Both the position numbers and the translations under genes were made by a program. Shown in pieces: positions 48,716 to 60,587 of a stretch of 64,000 bases of DNA. Every line of letters starts with the position of its first letter. Position 1 is the first letter of the stretch. This DNA is from Armatimonadota bacterium (lineage in GTDB: Bacteria; Sysuimicrobiota; Sysuimicrobiia; Sysuimicrobiales; Humicultoraceae), in NCBI GenBank assembly GCA_037443365.1, contig JBBIOM010000004.1:1-64000 (forward strand). The letters are read 5' to 3'. The notes under the pieces are model-generated. The model was given only the letters and a program-made list of their open reading frames with translations. It was not told the DNA's origin and did no database searches.

Positions 48716-50113
48716 ATGCCCGAGGAGGGTCCGCCCCTGCGCCTCCTGCCCTCAGTGGACCGAGTGGTGGAGGAGTTGCGCCGGCGGGGTCTGCTCGATG
48801 CGTTCTCACGCAGGGCGGCCACGCTGGCGGTCCAGCATGCGGTGGACGAGGCGCGCCGCGCGCTACGTGAGGGAGGAGGCGGCGTGGAGCACGAAGCCAT
48901 CGCGGATCGCGCCGCGGCAGTGCTGCGGCGGCAGTTCGGCGGCGGTCCCAGGCGCGTCATCAACGCGAGCGGCATCATACTGCACACAAACCTCGGACGC
49001 GCTCCCCTCTCCGTGGCGGCGCAGGCGGCGCTGGGTGAAGTCTCGTCCGGCTACTGCGCCCTGGAGATCGACCTGGAGAGCGGGGAGCGCGGCAGCCGCG
49101 CCGCGCACGTCGAGCCGCTGCTGACCGCCCTGACCGGGGCCGAGGCCGGCTTCGCGGTGAACAACGCCGCAGCCGCGGTCGTGCTTGCCCTGGCGGCCCT
49201 GGCCACCGGACGCGAGGTGCTGGTCGGGCGCGGCGAGCTCGTTGAGATCGGAGGCGGATTCCGGCTGCCCGACGTCATGCGCGCAAGCGGCGCCCGCCTC
49301 GTGGAGGTGGGAACGACCAACCGTACGTACCTGTCGGACTACGCGAGGGCACTGGGCGAACAGACGGGCATGTTGCTGAAGGTGCATCGGAGCAACTTCT
49401 CCCAGAGCGGGTTCGTGCAGGATGTCGCGCTGTCCGAGCTTGTGGAGCTCGGGCGGAGCCGCGACGTTCCGGTCGTGCATGATCTGGGCAGCGGCTGCCT
49501 TGTTGACACGGTGCGCGTGGGACTCCCGGCAGAGCCGATGGTGCAGGCCTCGGTAGCGCAGGGCGCGGATCTGGTGATCTTCAGCGGCGACAAACTGCTG
49601 GGCGGGCCGCAGGCCGGCGTGATCGTGGGGAGGCGCGCCACGACGGACCGCTGCCGGTCCCATCCGATGGCCAGGGCCGCGCGCCTGGACAAGTTGAACC
49701 TGGCAGCGCTTGTGGCCACCCTGCGCGCCCATCTCGACCAGGACCGGGCGTGGAAGGAGATCCCGATCCTGGCGATGCTGGCGCGCGCCCCCGGGGCGCG
49801 CCGCGCTCTGGCGCGGCGCCTGGCCAGAGGGGTACTGGGGGCCGTGGGAGGGGCGGCCTCGGTGGATGTCGTGCCCACGCACGGAGAGGTGGGAGGAGGT
49901 GCGCTTCCCGGCGCCTCGATTCCGTCCTGGGCCGTCAGGATCTCCCCTGTATCTGCGCGGCCCGAGGATTGGGCCGCACGCCTCCGGACGGGATCCGTGC
50001 CGGTGCTCGGTTTCATGCGGGAAGGCGCACTGCATCTGGACGTCCTGGCGCTGCTGCCCGGGGAGGAGCGGCGGATCCCGGCGCTGCTTCGGGCCGCCGC
50101 TTTCCCCGACTGA
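48716..50113 (+). CDS. selA: L-seryl-tRNA(Sec) selenium transferase
   Basis: [48 protein letters not shown] (PLP Lys). Confidence 0.96.
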
Positions 50114-52032
50114 TGCATCCGGTCACAATCGGCACCGCAGGGCACATAGACCACGGCAAGAGCGCGCTGGTGCGGGCGCTGACCGGCACCGACCCCGACC
50201 GCCTGGCCGAGGAGCAACGGCGCGGAATGACCCTTGATCTGGGCTTCGCGCACCTGGACCTGCCTGGGGGCCGGCGCGTGGGCATAGTGGATGTGCCAGG
50301 ACACGAAGCGCTCGTGCACAACATGCTGGCCGGGGCCGGAGGCATAGATCTGGTCATGCTCGTGGTGGCCGCCGACGAAGGCGCGATGCCACAGACACGG
50401 GAGCATGTGGACATCCTGCGCTTCCTCTGCCCCTGGGGCGGTGTGGTGGTCATCAGCAAGATGGACCTTGGGCCTGACCCGGAATGGCTGGCCGCGGTCG
50501 AGGAGGACCTTTCCGGGCTTGTGGCTGGGACGGCCCTGGAGGGCGCGCCGCTCGTGCACGTCTCGGCCAGGACCGGCGACGGGCTGGCAGAGCTGGTGCG
50601 CGTGCTCGCACGCCTGGTGGAGCAGGTACCGGAGAGATCGGCCGACGGTCCGGCACGCATGCCCGTGGATCGCTCCTTCACGATGCAGGGATTTGGCACC
50701 GTGGTAACCGGCACGGTATGGAACGGGCGCATCCTGCAAGGGGACACCCTGGTGCTGCTGCCATCGGGCCGGCAGGCAAGGGTGCGTGGCATCCAGGTCC
50801 ACGGCGTGGCTGTACCTGAGGCGACGGCGGGCAGCCGGGCCGCGGTCAATCTGGCCGGAGTCGAGAAGAGCGAGGCCAGGCGGGGCGACGTCCTGGCCAC
50901 GCCCGGCGCTTTCCGCGTCACCGACCGGCTGGACGTCCGCCTGAGACTCCTTCCTCACGCGCCCGCGCTGCGGCACGCCGCGCGGCTGCACGTCCACATC
51001 GGCGCCGGCGAGACCATCGGACGCGCGGTGCTGGCCGGACGCGGCGCGCTGGCCCCCGGCGAGGAGGGACTGGCCCAGATCCGCCTGGAGGCCCAGGTGG
51101 TCGCCGTGCATGGCGATCGGTTCGTGGTGCGGCGCTACTCGCCCACGAGCACCGTCGGGGGCGGGACCGTCCTGAACCCCGCGCCGTCGCGGCGACGCCG
51201 CGGTACACCTGCCGCGGCCGAGATGGACGCAGGCGAGAAGGGAGGCGCCGGGGCGCTCGTCGTGGCCGCGGTTACAGCGCGGGGACGCGCCGGAATGGCT
51301 CCCTCTGAGGTCGCGGCCGAATCTGGCGTGACCGAGCCCGTCGCCCGGGCCGCGCTTGCGAAGGCGGTTGAGGAGGGCGCCGTCCAGGACGTGGGCGCCC
51401 GCGTCTACGCGACGTCGGCGGTGCTCGAAACGCGCCGCGCCATAGAGGAAGCCCTGGGAGCATACCACAGGGCCGAGCCGTGGCGCCGCGGCATGCCGCG
51501 CGAGGAGCTCAAGAGGCGGGTACAGGCCGGGCCCCGCGACCCTCTGCTGGAGGCGGTGCTGGCACAGCTCTTGGGCGCGGGGGGCCTGGTGGAGACCCGA
51601 GGCTTGCTGGCGCTGGCAGGGCACACACCGAGGGTGGGGGAGGGCGAAAGGGCGCTGCGCGAGGCCCTCCTGGCGTTGCTGGAGCGGGCGGGTATCCAAC
51701 CCCTCCCGGGCGGGGAAATCGAGCGCCTGGGGCCTCCCAGTGCCCTGAACAGGGCGTTCCAGGCGCTGATCGACGAGGCCCTGGCCGTGCAGATAGCGCC
51801 CGACCTGCGGATCGCCGCGCGCGCGGCGGAGCAGGCCCGGCAGGCCGTGCTCGAGATGCTCCAACAGGGTACGCCAGTGAGTGTGGCGTCGCTACGTGAC
51901 CGGCTTCAGACCAACAGGAAGTACGCGCTGGCCCTGCTGGAGTACCTGGATTCGGCGCGGGTTACGCGCCGCGTGGGCGACCGGCGGATCCCCGGCCCCC
52001 TGGCCGAGCAGCCGCTCTGGCCGCCTGGCTAG
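50113..52032 (+). CDS. selB: selenocysteine-specific elongation factor
   Basis: [31 protein letters not shown]-terminal winged helix [24 protein letters not shown] coupling to selA. Confidence 0.96.
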
Positions 52033-53198
52033 TCGCTGACGCGCACATCGGTAATGCGGGTCGTGGCCGACCAGGTGGCGAACTCCTGGCAGATGCCGGG
52101 CGACAGTTCCACCGTGGCGCGGGCCGAGCCCCCCGCGGGAATCGCTCCGACCTTGGCCACACCGGACCGGCTGTCCTGCACGAATCGGGGAGCCGGCAGC
52201 ACCAGGCGACAGCCGCCCTCTATCTGAACAGCAACCGTGGCGCCTGCCACGGCAACAGGGCTGCGGTTCGTGACCACGACCACGAACCCCGCGGCAGCGC
52301 CCAGCCACTGCACTTGAGCCTCGAGCTGCTTGCCGACTATCTGCGCGAACTGCGCCATCCCCTTGATCTCACCGGCGTGCTCGGCCAGGGCACCGGTGAT
52401 CTGCCCGATCGGCCGGATGACGACGGTGTAGCGACGGACGACCTCGCCCACCTGCAGGCGAACCTCGAAGCCCGATGTCCTCCCGCGCGGCACGGGATTG
52501 GGGTAGACGGGAGCCGTTCCCTCTGCCACACGGCGCCCGGCTTCGCCAAACGCCCGCACCTCAGCGTAGACGGACATCGCCGGGCCCTGGTTCTCCACTG
52601 TGCCTGCGACGATCAGCGTGGCATCCTCTACGCGCGCGGACGATGCCCGGATACTCCACGCGGCAGGCTGCGCCGTGGGCGCAGCGGTGGGCGCCCCTGG
52701 CTGTGGGCGGGGCGCTGGCACTTCGACGCGCAGGCCTGTCTCTGCCCTGAAGACCTCCACCGTCTCGGCCTTCTCACGACGCACCAGGAAGGCCACACCG
52801 GCGAAGGGGTAGGAGAGAAGGTCTCCGTCCGGGGTCGCCGTGACGACGCTCGCGGACGCGCCCGCATAAGCGCTCCGAACCGCGGCGAGGGTGGAGCCAG
52901 GTCCGATGCCGCGCGCCGTGCGGCACGCCGGCGTGCGCGTGCTGATGCGCTCGACGAACCCGTAGTCGGTCACCATCTGTGCCCAGGGCTCGCGCAGGGC
53001 GTAGACCACGCGCGTTCCCGACTCCACCGCGCGCAGGGGCGTGCCCGTGGTGGCAATGGCCGCGGCCACACCCATCCCGAGCCGCACCCCGGCGATGCCG
53101 GCACCTTCCGCGATCACGCACTCGGCCGGACCTCCAGCGGACCAGCGACCCGGCGCCGCCAGCACCAGCGCGACTGCAAGAACCCACGCTCTGCGCAT
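52029..53198 (-). CDS. hypothetical exported protein (beta-rich, Ig-like C-terminal domains)
   Basis: Signal-peptide-like MRRAWVLAVALVLAAP, Pro/Ala linker, VAGTVENQG motif. Confidence 0.65.
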   Translation of the reverse strand: MRRAWVLAVALVLAAPGRWSAGGPAECVIAEGAGIAGVRLGMGVAAAIATTGTPLRAVESGTRVVYALREPWAQMVTDYGFVERISTRTPACRTARGIGPGSTLAAVRSAYAGASASVVTATPDGDLLSYPFAGVAFLVRREKAETVEVFRAETGLRVEVPAPRPQPGAPTAAPTAQPAAWSIRASSARVEDATLIVAGTVENQGPAMSVYAEVRAFGEAGRRVAEGTAPVYPNPVPRGRTSGFEVRLQVGEVVRRYTVVIRPIGQITGALAEHAGEIKGMAQFAQIVGKQLEAQVQWLGAAAGFVVVVTNRSPVAVAGATVAVQIEGGCRLVLPAPRFVQDSRSGVAKVGAIPAGGSARATVELSPGICQEFATWSATTRITDVRVSD

Positions 53199-53288
53199 CC
53201 GCACGGCAATCACCACCTGGATACTACGACGCAACGCCCAAAGTCCCTCCACCGGCCGTGATGCTGCGTGATCGAGAACCCGGCCTTC

Positions 53289-53341: not shown

Positions 53342-53436
53342 GGAGGGCATTGTTCGCTGGTGCGGGCCCCGGTCTTCAAAACCGGTCGCTGGGCTTGACG
53401 GTCCAGGCTGGGTTCGATTCCCAGGGCCCTCCGCCA
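53342..53436 (+). tRNA. selC: tRNA-Sec (anticodon UCA)
   Basis: Anticodon arm CCGGT-CTTCAAA-ACCGG, 6-bp D stem with TGGT loop, long variable arm, CTGGG-TTCGATT-CCCAG T arm, GCCA end. Confidence 0.95.
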
Positions 53437-53486: not shown

Positions 53487-53846
53487 ATGATCTCTCATTC
53501 ACGCGCAGCAGGGGGCCTGATCCTGCTTCTCATCGTCACGATATCCGCCGCGACCGGTGCCGTCATCACGAGGGCGGTGGATCAGGCCAGGGGCGTGCGG
53601 GTCTCCATGGGGTATGATGGCAGCGAAGTGCTCCTCTGGAACTCCACGGCCCAGACCTGGAGAATCTGCTCGGTGGTCCTGGACAACCGCTACGGCCTGG
53701 AGACCGCAAGCATCCCGGTGCGCACCCTGCTGATGCTTCCCAAGCGCCTGTTCGGAGCACCCGATGATTGGGAGCCGCGGCGGGCGGTCGTACGGTGTGA
53801 GGAACCCAGGAGCGGTTCCTGGGAGAGCCGGGTCAGCCCTTACTAG
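53487..53846 (+). CDS. hypothetical exported or membrane-anchored protein
   Basis: GAGGAG RBS, N-terminal hydrophobic helix, two Cys. Confidence 0.6.
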   Translation: MISHSRAAGGLILLLIVTISAATGAVITRAVDQARGVRVSMGYDGSEVLLWNSTAQTWRICSVVLDNRYGLETASIPVRTLLMLPKRLFGAPDDWEPRRAVVRCEEPRSGSWESRVSPY

Positions 53847-53902: not shown

Positions 53903-55003
53903 GTGATGGGACCCGCAGACGCCGGCCGCCAGCAGCCCGGCCCGCCCCTGGCGCAGCCTGCGGCGACGCACGCCCGCAGAAACCCGATCCGGCGCCTGGC
54001 CCGGGCGCCGCTGCTGCTCAAGATCCTGGTGGCCAACGCCGGCATCGTGGTGCTGGGCGCCGTGGCCGGGACAGCGATCTCGCTCCGCCACGGTGCCGTC
54101 CATCCCGGCGCCCCGCACTACGACCTTATGATCCTCTTTGGGACAGCCGGCGTGGCGGTGAGCGTGGCCGTCAACTTCCTGGTGCTGCGGGCCGTGTTGA
54201 GGCCACTGGATCACCTGCAGCGGGCCGTGGACGCGGTGGCCGAGGGGGAGCGCGGCGTGCGCGTGGCACGCTACGGCCTCTCCGATGACCGCCTCGACCA
54301 CCTGGCCGACACCTTTGACCGCATGATCGCGGCGCTGGAGGAGCAGGCCGAGCGGCTGCGGCTGTTGCCCGGGCAGATCCTCCGGGCGCAGGAGGAGGAG
54401 CGGCGCCGGGTGGCGCGCGAACTGCACGACGAGGCCGCCCAGTCGCTCACATCGCTGCTGGTGCGCCTGCGGCTGCTGGAGCAGGCCCAGGCGCCGGAGG
54501 CGGCGCAGCAGCGGGTCGCCGAGCTGCGCCGGCTCACAGCGCGGGCCCTCGACGACGTGCGGCGGATCGCCCTGGAGATGCGGCCCTCGGTTCTCGACGA
54601 CCTGGGGCTGGCTGATGCGCTCCACGCGCACGTCGACGGCCTCAACGCGTCTGGCAGTACGCGGATCAGCCTGCTGACCGAGGGCCTCGGCGTCCGCCTG
54701 GAACCCGGGGTGGAGTTGGCCCTCTACCGGGTGGCCCAGGAGGCACTGACCAACGCCAGGCGGCACGCCCGGGCGTCGGCGGCACGGGTGCGGATCCACC
54801 GGGAGGGGTCCGACGTCGTCCTGGAGGTGGAGGATGACGGCGCCGGCTTCGACCCGCATCAGGCCTCCTCCAGAGGGAGCGGGCTAGGCCTGGCCGGCAT
54901 GCGCGAGCGCATGGGTCTGATTGGCGGGACGCTGACGATCAGGTCAGCCCCAGGGCAGGGGACCACGGTGGTGGCGCGGGTCAGCCTGAGGGAGCGGAGG
55001 TAG
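53903..55003 (+). CDS. sensor histidine kinase (NarX/HisKA_3 type, HAMP)
   Basis: Two TMs, HAMP, EEERRRVARELHDE, YRVAQEALTNARRH, DDGAGF, GLGLAGMRER. Confidence 0.93.
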   Translation: MMGPADAGRQQPGPPLAQPAATHARRNPIRRLARAPLLLKILVANAGIVVLGAVAGTAISLRHGAVHPGAPHYDLMILFGTAGVAVSVAVNFLVLRAVLRPLDHLQRAVDAVAEGERGVRVARYGLSDDRLDHLADTFDRMIAALEEQAERLRLLPGQILRAQEEERRRVARELHDEAAQSLTSLLVRLRLLEQAQAPEAAQQRVAELRRLTARALDDVRRIALEMRPSVLDDLGLADALHAHVDGLNASGSTRISLLTEGLGVRLEPGVELALYRVAQEALTNARRHARASAARVRIHREGSDVVLEVEDDGAGFDPHQASSRGSGLGLAGMRERMGLIGGTLTIRSAPGQGTTVVARVSLRERR

Positions 55004-55008
55004 CCGGG

Positions 55009-55671
55009 ATGTCGGGGCCCATCCGCGTTCTGCTTGCCGATGACCACCCTGTTCTCCGTACCGGGCTGCGCACGTTGCTGGAGCAGGAACCCGACATGGC
55101 CGTTGTGGGTGAGGCCTCCGACGGGCACGAGGCGGTCGCTCTGGCGCAGCGGCTGCGCCCCGACGTGATCGTAATGGACATTAGCATGCCCGGGCTGGAC
55201 GGCCTTGAGGCCACGCGCCGGATACGCGCCCTCGGCCTGTCCTCCCCCGTCTTGATCCTGACGGTGCACGCCCAGGAGCGGTACCTGTTTCCGGTGCTCA
55301 AGGCCGGAGCCGCGGGCTACCTGAACAAGACCGCGGCGGACATGGAACTCGTGGCCGCGGCGCGCACCGTAGCCGGCGGTGGGGCGTTCCTGCACCCGGG
55401 CGCCACGCGCATGCTGCTCGAGGACTTCGTGACCCGCGTGCACACGGGCGCGGAGAAGGACAGCTTCGACCGGCTCAGCGAGCGAGAGCGCGAGGTCCTG
55501 AGGATGGTGGCCTCGGGTTACACTTCACGCGAGATCGCCGACCATCTCAGCCTGAGCCCAAAGAGCGTGGAGACGTATCGCGCCCGCATCATGGAGAAAC
55601 TGGAGCTGTCGACCCGCGCCGAGCTAGTGCGCTACGCCCTGCGGCGCGGCCTGCTGACAGGAGACGTGTAG
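55009..55671 (+). CDS. NarL/LuxR-family response regulator
   Basis: LLADDH, DVIVMDISMPGLDG, LSEREREVL, LSPKSVETYR. Confidence 0.95.
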   Translation: MSGPIRVLLADDHPVLRTGLRTLLEQEPDMAVVGEASDGHEAVALAQRLRPDVIVMDISMPGLDGLEATRRIRALGLSSPVLILTVHAQERYLFPVLKAGAAGYLNKTAADMELVAAARTVAGGGAFLHPGATRMLLEDFVTRVHTGAEKDSFDRLSEREREVLRMVASGYTSREIADHLSLSPKSVETYRARIMEKLELSTRAELVRYALRRGLLTGDV

Positions 55672-55785: not shown

Positions 55786-56247
55786 GTGATGGATCCGATG
55801 GCCTTCTTCCTGCTTGTGGCCGAGTGCGACGCCGATTTCCGCGAGACGCTGCGGGAGATGACCGGCGCAGTGCGAGCCGCCCTTCCGATTGATCTTGAGG
55901 TCCAGGAAGCCACTTCGGCGAGTGAGACTCGCGTCACGCTCCAGGAACGGCGTCCCGATGCGCTGCTCCTGGACTGGAATGTGACGGCCGAGGGGACCGT
56001 GCCCTTCGTTCAAGAACTCCAGGGCCTCGCCCCCGGCATACGCATCATGGTGATGCTGCCCGAGGCGGCCGGGGAGTACCGGAGGGCCGTCTGGGCGGCA
56101 GGCGCCTGCGCGGGCATGCCGCGCGACCGCCTTGACGCCGAGTGCCTGGCCACGGCCATCTGCATCATGCAGCGCGCCAAGATGCGCGAGACGGCGCTGC
56201 GCTCCCGCGTGAGGGAACTCTGCCCGGCTACGGCCGAAGTGCTGTGA
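55786..56247 (+). CDS. stand-alone atypical receiver-domain protein
   Basis: PDALLLDW, VWAAGACAGMPR resembles a REC fold; no output domain; TGATG-coupled to psrA. Confidence 0.65.
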   Translation: MMDPMAFFLLVAECDADFRETLREMTGAVRAALPIDLEVQEATSASETRVTLQERRPDALLLDWNVTAEGTVPFVQELQGLAPGIRIMVMLPEAAGEYRRAVWAAGACAGMPRDRLDAECLATAICIMQRAKMRETALRSRVRELCPATAEVL

Positions 56248-58535
56248 TGAGGGTCTCCCGCAGGGAGTTCATGGTACTCGGCACCGGTGCCGCGGGTGCG
56301 CTGGCGGCGGCCTCTGCGCCCAGCCTGCTGCGCCGGTTCTTGCCGCCTCGCCGACGCTTCTGGTACCAGAACGCCACGACCGCCATCCCGACCGTGTGCG
56401 AGATGTGCCTGTGGCGGTGCGGCGCCATCGCACACGTTGCCGACGGCCGCGTGTGGAAGATTGACGGGCATCCCGACAACCCCAAGTCCAATGGTCGGCT
56501 GTGTGCGAGGGGCTTGGGAGGCCTGGGCGAGCTCTACGATCCCGACCGGCTCAAGAAGCCCCTGATCCGCACCGGGAAGCGGGGCGAGGGGACGTTTCGA
56601 GAGGCGTCCTGGGACGAGGCGCTCGACCTGTCGGCCAAGGCGCTGCTGGAGATCAAGGAGCAGTACGGTCCCGAGGCCGTCGCCTTCTTCGGGCACTATG
56701 CCGGGGACAAATGGTTCGTGGACTACCTGGCGCCAGCCTGGGGGTCTCCCAACGCCGGCAAACCCTCCGTAGCCCTGTGCACCACGCCCCGAGAGGTCGC
56801 GAGCAACCTGACCTTCGGCAGGCCGATTGGTGGCCACGAGCCGGTGGACTGGGACGATGTCCGCTACCTCGTGCTTTTCGGCACCCATATCGGCGAGAAC
56901 GCCCACAACACCATGATGCAGCAGTTCGCCGCAGCCCGGGCCCGGGGCGCCAAGGTCGCTGTCGTGGATCCTCGCTTCTCCACGGTGGCCTCTAAGGCCG
57001 ACCGGTACCTGCCGATCAAGCCCGGCACCGACACCGCGCTGCTGCTTGCCTGGATGCACTGGCTCATCGCCCGCGGCCACTACGACGCTGATTACATAGC
57101 GCGGTACGCCGAGGGCTTCGACAAACTTGCCGAGCACGTGAAGCCCTTCACGCCGGAGTGGGCCGCGAAGATCACCGATCTACCGGTCGAGCAGGTCGTG
57201 GAGGTCGCGAAGGACCTCTGCCGCTATCGGCCGCAGGCGGTCCTGGTGCCCGGCCGGCACGTGGTGTGGTACGGCAACGACACCCAGCGGATGCGGGCGC
57301 TGTACCTGGTCAACATCCTGCTGGGCAACTACGGCCGGCGCGGCGGGTTCTACATCGCGGAGTCGCCGTACATCGAGGACTACCCGCTGCCGCCGTTTCC
57401 TATCGGATCCGAAGCGGGCGGCTGAGCAGGTCCTGCGCCCTCCGGTCCGGAGGGCCCCTCAGATCGGAAGCCGCGCGCCGACGGGCAGGGAGCGCGGTTC
57501 CTGCGGGGCGGCGTCGCCATCCAGGAACTGGTCGAGCCCATGGTCTCGGGCCAGCCGTACCCGATCAAGGGCCTGGTGAGCTACGCCGTCAACCTGTTCC
57601 ACACCCTTCCGAATCCGGCACGCACACGCGAGGCCCTGGAGCGGCTCGACTTCCACCTGGCCATAGACATCCTGCCGCAGGAGCACACGCGCTGGGCCGA
57701 CGTCGTGCTCCCCGAGTGCACCTATCTCGAGCGCTACGACGACCTCATCACCGTGGCCCACAAGCGGCCCTTCATCGCGCTGCGGCAGCCTGTCGTTCAG
57801 CCCATGCACGACACCAAGCCGGGCTGGTGGATCGCCCGCGAACTGGGGCTCCGCCTGGGGCTGGAGCAGTACTTCCCCTGGAAGACGATCGAGGAGTACC
57901 TGGAGCAGCGCCTCAACTCGGTGGGCCTCACGCTGGAGGAGATGAAGCAGAAGGGCGTCAGCATCCAGAAGGGCCGGCCGTACCTGGAGGACTGGGAGGG
58001 GAGAGGGACGCCCTTCAAGATGACCGGGGGCAAGATCGTGATCTACTGCGAAGAACTCGCGAAGGCTGGGCACGATCCGCTGCCCCGCTACGAGCCGACC
58101 CCCGAGCCCCCAGAAGGGTACTTCCGGCTCATCTATGGCCGCGCGCCCGTCCACACTTTCGCGCGCACGCAGAACAACCCGGTGCTCGCCCGGCTGATGG
58201 CCGATAACGAGGTCTGGATCAATCGCGAGGCGGCCGCCGATCTCGGCCTCGCCGACGGTGATCGCGTCATGCTGGTCAACCAGGATGGCGCCAGGAGCGG
58301 GCCGGTCAGGGTGCGGGCCACCTCGCGCATCCGCAGGGACTGCGTCTACATGGTGCACGGTTTCGGCCACAACGCCCCTGGGATGCGCCGGGCCCACGGT
58401 CGAGGGGCCAGCGATACGGCACTGCAAACCCGTTATGCCATCGACCCGATCAGCGGTGGAGCCGGGTTGCGAGTCAACTTCGTCCGGCTGGAGCGGGGCA
58501 GCCGCACATCGCACCGCGCGGCCGGGAGGGCGTAG
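56247..58535 (+). CDS. psrA: polysulfide/thiosulfate/selenite reductase-type molybdopterin catalytic subunit, selenoprotein (UGA=Sec at 57423-57425)
   Basis: Tat signal SRREF, FS0 motif CEMCLWRC...C, Mo-ligand ALCTTPRE; ORFs 56142-57425 and 57540-58535 are in the same frame with only one TGA between them; 762 aa in total. Confidence 0.88.
57422..57462 (+). promoter_or_regulatory. bacterial SECIS element
   Basis: GCCCTCC-GGTCC-GGAGGGC stem-loop (57437-57455) begins 11 nt after the UGA; lower pairing CTGAG(57422-26)/CTCAG(57458-62). Confidence 0.8.
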
Positions 58536-58538
58536 GCG

Positions 58539-59111
58539 ATGGCGCGCTTTGGGATGGCGGTGGACCTCGATCGGTGCGTCGGTTGTCAGGCCTGCGCGGT
58601 AGCCTGCGCTGTGGAGAACGAGGTTCCCGAGGGCTTCGCGCGCCGGAGGGTAGGCGAGGTGGTCGCCGGTTGGGACCTCGACGACCTGCGTCTCCAGTTC
58701 CTGCACATGCAGTGCTACCACTGCGCCAACCCCCCCTGCATCCTGGTCTGCCCCACCGGCGCGACCTACATCAACCGCGACGGCCTCTGCCTTGTGGACT
58801 ACAACATCTGCATCGGCTGCCGGGCATGCGTCTCCGCCTGTCCCTACGGGATGCGCTACCCGCATCCGCGCGGCTTCGTGGACAAGTGCTCCATGTGTGA
58901 CCACCGGATCCACAGCGACCGTCATCCGGCCTGCGTCGAAGCGTGCCCCGCAGGAGCACTGGTCTTCGGTGACCTCGACGACCCGAACAGCGCCATCAGC
59001 CAGGCCGCCGCCGCGGCAAGCCGCGTCGAGGCAGACCGCCCAGAGACCGGCGCCCGGCCCAAGTTCCTCTTCCTCAACGCCCGGGTCAGTCCGCAGGAGG
59101 TGCGTCGGTGA
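58539..59111 (+). CDS. psrB: 4Fe-4S electron-transfer subunit (PsrB/NrfC type)
   Basis: CVGCQACAVAC, CYHCANPPCILVCP, CIGCRACVSACP, KCSMC...PACVEACP. Confidence 0.92.
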   Translation: MARFGMAVDLDRCVGCQACAVACAVENEVPEGFARRRVGEVVAGWDLDDLRLQFLHMQCYHCANPPCILVCPTGATYINRDGLCLVDYNICIGCRACVSACPYGMRYPHPRGFVDKCSMCDHRIHSDRHPACVEACPAGALVFGDLDDPNSAISQAAAAASRVEADRPETGARPKFLFLNARVSPQEVRR

Positions 59112-60034
59112 TCGAACTTCGCGACTCGGTCCTCAACACAACACTCCATCTGTGGGGCTGGGAGGTGGCGGTCTACCTGTTCCTGGGCGGCCTGGCAGCC
59201 GGGCTGCTGATCTTCGCCTCATCGGCGCACCTGGCCGGCCGTCGGCGGGAGTACTACCCAGCGGTCCGCGCGGCGACGCTGTGGACCCCGCCGATCATCC
59301 TGGTCGGCTTGGTCTCCCTCTGGCTCGACCTGGGCAGCAAGTGGAACCCGTTCTGGTTGTACCTGACCTTCCGGCCGTTGAGCCCGATGTCGTGGGGCGC
59401 CTGGATCCTGATCGCGGTGCTGCTCACCTCCTCGCTGGCCTCGGTCCCGGCGATCGCCGCACGAGGGGCATGGCCATGGCATCGGTCGAGAACAGCCCTA
59501 GACCGCCTCGCGCGATGGGTGGGGCCGCGCGTGCGCACGCTCTCTTGGTGGAATCTTGGCATGGGCGTGGCCCTGGGGGTCTATACCGGCGTCCTCCTCG
59601 GGACCATGGTCGCGCGCCCGGCGCTCAACAGCCCGCTGCTCGGCCCGCTGTTTCTGGTCTCCGGAGCATCTACCGCCGGGGCCCTGATCGTGATCCTCAT
59701 CCCCGGCGGGCCGTGGGGTCGCCTGCTGACCCGTGCCGAGGTGGCAGTGAAACTGATCAAGTTCTCGATGCTCGGGCTGTATCTGGTTGGCCTGGCGACC
59801 TCCACCGCCTATGCACAGGCCGCCGCCGCCACGCTGGTAGCCGGTGCCTGGGCCTGGGTATTCTGGCCGGTCGTCGTGGTGGCAGGCGTGCTGGCGCCTC
59901 TGGGGATCGCGCTGGCTGAGATCGTCACACACCGTGTCAGCCGCGCCCTGGCACTGCTATCCAGTTCGATGGTCCTGGCAGGCGGGCTGGCTCTCAGGAT
60001 CGTGCTGGTGTACGCCGGACAGCGCGGATTCTGA
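59108..60034 (+). CDS. psrC: NrfD/PsrC-family membrane anchor
   Basis: WGWEVAVYLFLGGLAAG, SPMSWGAW, YTGVLL, about 8 TMs. Confidence 0.92.
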   Translation: MIELRDSVLNTTLHLWGWEVAVYLFLGGLAAGLLIFASSAHLAGRRREYYPAVRAATLWTPPIILVGLVSLWLDLGSKWNPFWLYLTFRPLSPMSWGAWILIAVLLTSSLASVPAIAARGAWPWHRSRTALDRLARWVGPRVRTLSWWNLGMGVALGVYTGVLLGTMVARPALNSPLLGPLFLVSGASTAGALIVILIPGGPWGRLLTRAEVAVKLIKFSMLGLYLVGLATSTAYAQAAAATLVAGAWAWVFWPVVVVAGVLAPLGIALAEIVTHRVSRALALLSSSMVLAGGLALRIVLVYAGQRGF

Positions 60035-60137
60035 ACCGCGAAGGGAGGGAGACAGACTACTACCCGCATCCAGTTCGTCACGTGAAGGCCGCTCGTGAAC
60101 GAGCCCGACAACAACCATGCTTCAGGGAGGGAGTTTG

Positions 60138-60587
60138 ATGAAGAGAGCACACCTGGTCATTCTCGGCCTGGCCATCGCCATGGTCGTGGCAGCGCCGGCC
60201 GTCAGCAGGGAGTGGATCGAGCGGCCGTTCGTGACAGCCGCCGAGCGGATGCTGGCGACAATGCCGGCCGACTTCTTCCAGATGGATCCGACGGCTGTCC
60301 AGCGGCTGATGGAGACCGCTCAGCCGCTGATCCTCGACGTGCGTGAGAAAGCGGAGTGGGACGCCGAGCGCATCGCCGGCTCGGTGCACGTGCCGATCCG
60401 CGAGTTGGCCAAGTTCATTGACAGGCTGCCCGACAGCAGGGGTGCACCGATCGTGGCCGTGTGCAAGATCGGCTACCGCGGCGGGATCGCCATGACGATG
60501 CTGCGCATGTGGGGGTACACCAACGTGCGCGCGATGCGCGGCGGGCTCGACGCCTGGAAGGCCGCCGGGCTGCCCGTGACCAAGTAG
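60138..60587 (+). CDS. exported single-domain rhodanese (Sud-like sulfurtransferase)
   Basis: Signal peptide; ILDVRE, active loop CKIGYR, GGLDAWKAAGLPV; GGGAGGGAG RBS. Confidence 0.9.
   Translation: MKRAHLVILGLAIAMVVAAPAVSREWIERPFVTAAERMLATMPADFFQMDPTAVQRLMETAQPLILDVREKAEWDAERIAGSVHVPIRELAKFIDRLPDSRGAPIVAVCKIGYRGGIAMTMLRMWGYTNVRAMRGGLDAWKAAGLPVTK

Follow-up and report, generated by a model that had tools for sequence, protein, structure and literature searches.

In Wolinella succinogenes, sulfane sulfur reaches the molybdoenzyme Psr through a partner, the polysulfide-sulfur transferase Sud, a periplasmic carrier of the rhodanese type that hands it over; we know of no cysteine (Cys) or selenocysteine (Sec) within Wolinella Psr that serves as acceptor. 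In the formate dehydrogenases (FDHs) and FwdB, members of the dimethyl sulfoxide (DMSO) reductase superfamily, Sec is the ligand of molybdenum (Mo) or tungsten (W), in a U-H motif (PMC7331816, PMC10100899), and the accessible parts of these two phylogenomic papers on the family describe it solely as the Mo/W ligand of the FwdB/Fdh lineages. A third arrangement is found in MccSep of Geobacter sulfurreducens, an experimentally shown multiheme polysulfide reductase in which, according to the accessible text, the haem iron has a Cys ligand and S-S cleavage requires a separate Sec (PMC13510729). The gene described here, psrA, occupies positions 56247-58535 (+) of a 64,000-nucleotide stretch of contig JBBIOM010000004.1—'the window' in what follows—from an Armatimonadota bacterium of the phylum Ca. 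Sysuimicrobiota (formerly CSP1-3). Judged from its sequence and that of its relatives, it very probably encodes a genuine selenoprotein with Sec at residue 393. In no other enzyme of the DMSO reductase family have we found a Sec that is not the metal ligand. That Sec can replace a redox Cys under the direction of a Sec insertion sequence (SECIS) is a known principle; the non-ligand site in an enzyme of this family appears to be new. The computational support is of four kinds: the pairing of Sec with Cys in homologs, conservation of a SECIS-like element, the presence of Sec machinery, and purifying selection.

A PsrA gene with one in-frame TGA

From the ATG at 56247 to the TAG at 58533-58535, the window's open reading frame (ORF) contains a single in-frame stop, the TGA at 57423-57425. 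A sequence-only reading of the window had noticed two ORFs split by this codon, and so they are: the table-11 ORFs 56142..57425 and 57540..58535 share one frame, with no further stop in it. Translated through the TGA, the product has 762 residues, with the Sec codon as U393 in the context PIGSEAGG-U-AGPAPSGPEG (spanning peptide GSEAGG-U-AGPAPSGPEGPSDR). The same reading had pictured a complete, exported enzyme with its metal-binding motifs intact, and this picture holds up. By alignment and Pfam, codons 1-392 (56247..57422) specify a twin-arginine translocation (Tat) signal, SRREFM, the cysteines of the FS0 [4Fe-4S] cluster (C51/C54/C58/C86), the putative Mo ligand Cys178 (in ALCTTPRE) and R337/H338; codons 394-762 and the TAG stop (57426..58535) continue in the same frame under purifying selection.

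Three molybdopterin oxidoreductase domains are recognized by Pfam in the read-through protein. The top NCBIfam model, the thiosulfate reductase PhsA equivalog NF012032, scores 520.6 bits, under its curated cut-off of 694 bits, and the protein appears to be related to enterobacterial PhsA without being its equivalog. The closest solved structure is PsrA of Thermus thermophilus (PDB 2vpw_A; E=0, 1098 bits, query 4-753, 63% identity), and an AlphaFold 2 (AF2) model of the window protein, with a mean predicted local distance difference test (pLDDT) score of 90, matches it in Foldseek with a TM-score of 0.91 at 63% identity. Architecture, FS0 motif, Cys as Mo ligand, Tat signal, and the company of PsrB and an NrfD-type PsrC all agree with the PsrA/PhsA/SrrA lineage of Mo-bisPGD enzymes in the DMSO reductase family. 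The gene is predicted to encode a complete PsrA of the Thermus type, which serves a quinol-dependent PsrABC reductase of polysulfide or other sulfur compounds as its catalytic, molybdopterin-binding subunit. The substrate—polysulfide, or else thiosulfate or selenite—is predicted only from the 63% identity to the T. thermophilus enzyme.

Residue 393 and the loop that carries it

Aligned with 2vpw, the TGA column holds a Cys (aaggCsgp), chain residue 388 when counted along the ungapped alignment; the loop Cys of T. thermophilus PsrA that the sequence-only reading had named (AAGGCSGP) is thus present, in the TGA column, and invariant in the clade. The Mo ligand lies elsewhere. Cys178 aligns with chain Cys173 of 2vpw, which we take to be the Mo ligand of the T. 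thermophilus enzyme, and, against FdhF, with the ligand position of the C/U-H motif. In the accessible part of PMC7331816, Table 1 likewise gives Cys as the PsrA metal ligand. The window protein therefore departs from the FdhA/FwdB class with its U-H motif: Cys178 holds the ligand position and Sec comes at 393, off the metal, as had been proposed.

Scoring of 8000 candidates gave 6392 proteins at E <= 1e-50, and the best 120 full-length homologs among them, 56-83% identical, were aligned with MAFFT. Column 393 is Cys in 120/120, and never Trp. In the 99-row alignment, G391-G392-C393 is invariant, and of the remaining cysteines only C178 and those of FS0 are invariant or nearly so, so that residue 393 has no conserved Cys partner of its own. 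Of the 150 best entries in the 50%-identity library, 117 representatives of >= 650 aa were aligned; a single one, at 56% identity, keeps GG-C, and the loop is absent in all at <=50%. The GG-C motif thus appears, from the alignments, to sit on a glycine-rich loop specific to the PsrA clade; Wolinella-type PsrA would be expected among the distant (<=50% identity) homologs that lack the GG[C/U] loop.

Recurrence of the TGA codon

At E <= 1e-100, psrA has orthologs in 7 of 94 genomes of Ca. Sysuimicrobiota (these tallies, for the ortholog here and for SelA below, include the unpublished genomes G015 and G024). Codon 393 is TGA in five of the seven, including the window's own genome, G000; the others are G014, G022, G029 and G013, and the five span four genera and two families. 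It is TGT in the remaining two, G002, of the window's genus, and G041; internal stops flagged in the psrA genes of G002 and G041 turned out to be the genes' terminal stops, and both are Cys forms. The psrA frame in G014 (locus L018) stays open for 401 codons past the Sec codon, compared with 358-370 in other loci, which may reflect either an extended C-terminus or a stop that was missed. Among 80 metagenome loci, 26 have the loop; the codon specifies Cys, as TGC or TGT, in 22 of them and is TGA in the other four.

Positions 57423-57425 are covered by contigs of three further sequencing runs, for which differences are listed at other places and none at this codon. One of these runs (X2) comes from the probable source's study, and two (X4 and X5) from two other hot-spring studies, whose records are identical and may be one data set. 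Compared with five relatives, the window psrA has a ratio of nonsynonymous to synonymous substitution (Ka/Ks) of 0.14-0.22 after the TGA (240 codons) versus 0.10-0.25 before it (380 codons), with Ks about 0.7-0.9; the region downstream of the TGA is under purifying selection like the upstream part.

A query of the N-terminal 392 residues retrieved 653 proteins of 215-686 aa at E <= 1e-50. Of the best 120 of these, 115 end in ...GG, and 114 do so exactly one residue before column 393. One candidate, P0157, was rejected as a column-ending half, its terminal GG being there by chance after a divergent tail. Several of the truncated halves lie on contigs of 100-400 kb and carry the name molybdopterin-dependent oxidoreductase, with sources named as Chloroflexi, Anaerolineaceae, Anaeromyxobacteraceae and Ca. 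Methylomirabilis; stored under such names, the TGA forms are evidently handled by current annotation as short proteins. The suspicion that standard annotation would misread the gene was well founded, since in databases the TGA forms appear as N-terminal halves, cut short. Altogether, TGA-bearing homologs of the kind that the sequence-only reading anticipated were found in five phylum genomes, four metagenome loci and about 114 database clusters.

In a FastTree phylogeny of 116 Cys-form and 107 Sec-form N-terminal parts, the two states interchange at least nine times, and the Sec forms fall in several large, well-supported groups. The sets are the best-120 lists, not random samples, from which four Cys and nine Sec rows were dropped by length and motif filters.

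Selenocysteine machinery

Genes for Sec synthesis and insertion were found as the sequence-only reading had led one to look for them, three of them 3-7 kb upstream of psrA. They are selA, for L-seryl-tRNA(Sec) selenium transferase (48716..50113, +; TIGR00474, 517 bits against a cut-off of 268); selB, for the Sec-specific elongation factor (50122..52032, +; TIGR00475, 337 bits, cut-off 242; the ORF as listed begins at 49750, with the family match from its residue 125); and selC, the tRNA-Sec, with anticodon TCA (53342..53436, +; Rfam, 70.9 bits, cut-off 47). The fourth gene, selD, lies on another contig (C21:18065-18988, -; locus L012) and itself encodes a selenoprotein, its UGA standing in ACAG-U-ASKL, a U-x-x-K motif, with a hairpin whose apex falls about 20 nt past the UGA. 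With selA, selB, selC and selD, the set is complete. SelA is encoded in 77 of the 94 phylum genomes, among them four of the five TGA-bearing genomes and both Cys-form genomes.

Only in this genome do selA, selB and tRNA-Sec stand directly upstream of the psr operon. In G014, about 1.9 Mb of one contig separates selA from psrA, and in G002 each is on a contig of its own, so their adjacency is not a conserved feature. A second match to the tRNA-Sec model in the window's genome (contig C55:138-223, +; locus L002) scores 49.7 bits, just above the gathering score; it may be an ordinary long-arm tRNA, since the same model passes its cut-off in 5 of 14 control genomes.

A SECIS-like element

Immediately after the TGA comes a candidate SECIS (57426..57455, +): an 11-nt spacer (57426-57436), then a stem formed by 57437-57444 and 57448-57455 around an apical GUC (GGUCC, with the closing pair open). 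The sequence at 57437-57455 is GCCCUCCG-GUC-CGGAGGGC. The stem has 7-8 bp, the helix begins at +12 and the GGUC loop at +19 relative to the UGA of psrA. A stem-loop directly after the UGA, with a G-rich apical loop at the proper distance, is what bacterial SelB-dependent selenoproteins call for, and the element has this build. The fdhA gene of the same genome (LCARV-U-HAPS) has matching geometry: 11 nt of spacer, a stem of 7 bp and a GGUCU loop whose GGUC starts at +19. This gene, for a formate dehydrogenase alpha subunit (contig C2:62924-64351, -; locus L109), specifies a second molybdopterin enzyme with one TGA, whose Sec is at the canonical ligand position.

Pairing in the helix (15-22/26-33) reaches 97.9% over six sequences, those of the five phylum TGA loci and of the Cys-form G002. 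Of its pairs, four are constant, one differs on a single side, and two show changes on both, as C-G/G-C/A-U/G-U and as C-G to U-A. Control structures slid by 1-3 columns reach 29-56% pairing, and only 2 of 500 shuffles attain the covariation score. The compensatory changes recode residues (Pro to Leu together with Gly to Ser in G029), so that conservation of the protein cannot by itself account for them.

The four metagenome TGA loci have another hairpin: AGGAGGC, a loop of 4-6 nt such as CGGGCU, and then GCCUCCU, starting at +16/17. Its outer pairs were rejected, and only the 7-bp core holds. In the Cys-form neighbors of these four loci the loop is two residues longer, and the hairpin is missing. 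An uninterrupted stem of >= 7 bp starting 10-17 nt past the codon is present in eight of nine TGA loci, and the ninth has the same hairpin with one mismatch. A comparable stem occurs in 2 of the 21 Cys loci examined: the retained hairpin of G002, and one at +26. In the account that we favor, SelB and tRNA-Sec decode UGA393 as Sec under the direction of this stem-loop, which starts 11 nt downstream. Sec would then replace the clade-invariant Cys of the GG-C loop, and Cys178 would remain the Mo ligand.

Several observations weigh against this account. The 86-nt region is no stabler than shuffles of it (z = -0.23; 80 of 200 fold as well), its minimum free energy (MFE) structure does not contain the hairpin, and in 57-nt windows the hairpin is part of the MFE structure for only three of the five phylum TGA loci. 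No Rfam SECIS family matches the element. The second type of hairpin is invariant in its four metagenome loci and so offers no covariation. The Cys-form G002 retains the first type; part of the hairpin's conservation may reflect protein sequence, or, in the case of G002, recent conversion. And SelA was not found in the TGA-bearing genome G029, which is 72% complete.

What residue 393 might do

Beyond psrB and psrC, the operon includes a gene for a periplasmic, single-domain rhodanese (60117..60587, +), a protein of 156 aa with a signal peptide and an active-site loop, C116-x2-G-x-R, that is invariant. Among loci with >= 2.5 kb of DNA past psrA, a homolog of this rhodanese (tblastn at E <= 1e-6, with the window's protein as query) lies within 4 kb downstream of psrA in 15 of 16 loop-bearing loci, versus 0 of 38 loop-less ones.

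An invariant Cys without a partner, on a flexible glycine-rich loop, replaceable by Sec and co-inherited with a rhodanese, suggests a catalytic chalcogen for sulfane sulfur. The persulfide or selenide relay that the sequence-only reading had put forward gains indirect support from the tight association of loop and rhodanese. With prospects that we judge to be about even, residue 393 would be a second catalytic chalcogen, a relay or nucleophile for sulfane sulfur, the source of which is probably the co-inherited periplasmic rhodanese. In such a cycle, the selenolate (the thiolate in Cys forms) would attack polysulfide or the rhodanese persulfide; the resulting Se-S adduct would reach the Mo(IV) centre; and reductive cleavage there would free sulfide and regenerate the selenolate. 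More tentatively, we suggest that Thermus-type PsrABC enzymes as a group may use a two-chalcogen mechanism unknown in the DMSO reductase family, in which the loop Cys or Sec takes sulfur from rhodanese and delivers it to the Cys-ligated Mo, and that Sec-PsrA is widespread and uncatalogued, Sec having replaced the loop Cys repeatedly and in a large part of the clade. Two observations count against this role. The association with rhodanese amounts to detection of similarity among related, non-independent loci, and confidence in the AF2 model is low at the loop, with pLDDT block means of 57 and 66.

Alternative explanations

If the TGA simply terminates translation, the window contains a pseudogene or a split gene, a 392-aa fragment with or without a separate C-terminal piece. 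Table-11 gene calling yields exactly such halves, and databases store them, yet the codon recurs at the same place in five genomes of four genera and in more than 100 clusters, with no other lesion; Ka/Ks past the TGA equals that before it; a restart at the next in-frame ATG (57540, codon 432) would omit codons 394-431 from any product; and both the SECIS-like element and a full set of Sec machinery are present. We regard decay or splitting as extremely improbable. The TGA might instead stand for a standard residue (Cys or Trp), under an alternative code or through decoding of a near-cognate or suppressor kind, or it might be an error of assembly, and it is true that Sec insertion here is predicted from sequence. 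However, TGA also acts as an ordinary stop in this organism, as is seen in the ORF immediately upstream of psrA, whose TGA stop overlaps the psrA ATG; the aligned residue is always Cys and never Trp; and a dedicated tRNA-Sec with anticodon TCA is encoded 4 kb upstream. A slip of assembly is disfavored because four more genomes of the phylum have TGA at this very codon, and the sequencing error that would have undone the sequence-only reading is not in evidence, the TGA being kept in the contigs of the three further runs. Explanations of this second sort strike us as very improbable.

The main rival to a relay role accepts Sec393 as real and makes it something other than a handler of substrate: a redox switch, or a protective or gating residue. 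It might, for example, bond reversibly through Se-S to Cys178, the Mo ligand, or to a sulfido ligand and so shield the site from oxygen. Allosteric disulfides exist in Sec-FDHs; residue 393 is invariant, and the AF2 model places its loop with low confidence; and many carriers of the Cys form come, by source names, from aerobic or facultative lineages (Thermus, Trueperaceae, Acidimicrobiia). A switch would find no conserved partner Cys besides the ligand and the FS0 cysteines, however, and the co-inheritance of rhodanese fits sulfur transfer better. We consider a switch or protective role unlikely, though not so remote as a misread or broken gene, and prefer the sulfane-sulfur relay.

Operon and neighboring genes

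Downstream of psrA, and ahead of the rhodanese gene, are psrB, for a four-cluster ferredoxin subunit (58539..59111, +), and psrC, for an NrfD-type membrane quinol subunit (59108..60034, +). Upstream are genes for a histidine kinase (53903..55003, +) and a LuxR-type response regulator (55009..55671, +), both of which precede psrA in several clade loci. The ORF directly upstream of psrA (55786..56247, +; 153 aa) has a weak match to a receiver domain (E = 7.9e-4). By tblastn it is present in 12 of the 31 clade loci examined, the window included, and it lies upstream of psrA wherever its placement is known.

Between selB, tRNA-Sec and the kinase gene are two ORFs with no Pfam match, at 52029-53252 (-; 407 aa) and 53487-53846 (+; 119 aa); they may be spurious in GC-rich DNA. 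Members of the loop clade outside Sysuimicrobiota have rhodaneses of another build, with two to four tandem domains, secreted or lipoprotein-like (loci L033, L089, L038, L041, L043, L045, L046, L050 and L102).

Significance and comparison with known systems

Full-text literature searches, whose scope did not extend to supplementary lists, returned no report of Sec in PsrA or PhsA. In the accessible part of a 2026 review of prokaryotic selenoproteomes (PMC13188914), the word 'polysulfide' is never used, 'molybdopterin' is used for MoeB only, and FdhA and FwdB are the sole members of the DMSO reductase family named in Table 1. A 2022 selenoprotein review and the deep-Sep paper contain nothing on Sec in PsrA, and the Sysuimicrobiota paper mentions neither psr nor selenium. 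A 2026 preprint notes SECIS-like features beside 'other molybdopterin oxidoreductases', with no detail. The sequence-only reading knew of no earlier description of such a Sec site, and none is reported in these reviews or in annotation.

The site brings a new selenoprotein family to a textbook respiratory enzyme of solved structure, and points to the invariant Cys388 of T. thermophilus PsrA, in a genetically tractable host, as functionally essential; reviews that mention PsrA say nothing, in their accessible parts, on the function of this Cys. In the databases, truncated halves stand for more than 100 clusters, whose source names (Chloroflexota, Myxococcota, Methylomirabilota and Ca. Sysuimicrobiota) indicate at least four phyla, and for this reason the potential for sulfur respiration is under-called in metagenomes. 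If our reading is right, catalogs and annotation pipelines lack, in Sec-PsrA, one of the more widespread families of selenoproteins.

Of the described systems, PsrABC of T. thermophilus (PDB 2vpw-2vpz) is the most similar in build: it shares the Tat signal, the FS0 motif, the Mo-ligand Cys, R337/H338, the GG-C loop, and psrB and psrC as partners, and Thermus-like metagenome loci have the downstream rhodanese as well; it differs in having Cys where the window PsrA has Sec. The Sec-containing FDHs and FwdB belong to the same superfamily and depend on the same bacterial SECIS/SelB recoding, with a SECIS geometry that the organism's own fdhA shares with psrA. Their Sec binds the metal, however, whereas in the window PsrA the ligand is Cys178 and Sec follows 215 residues later, on a loop that FDHs lack. 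The closest mechanistic analog, as far as the accessible account of it goes, is MccSep, which also reduces polysulfide and also combines a metal-ligating Cys with a Sec that is not a ligand. In fold the two are unrelated—MccSep has five c-type haems and no molybdopterin—and MccSep is experimentally proven whereas the case for the window PsrA is computational. Taken together with what is accessible of the 2026 MccSep report, Sec-PsrA suggests that selenium-assisted cleavage of S-S bonds recurs in sulfur respiration.

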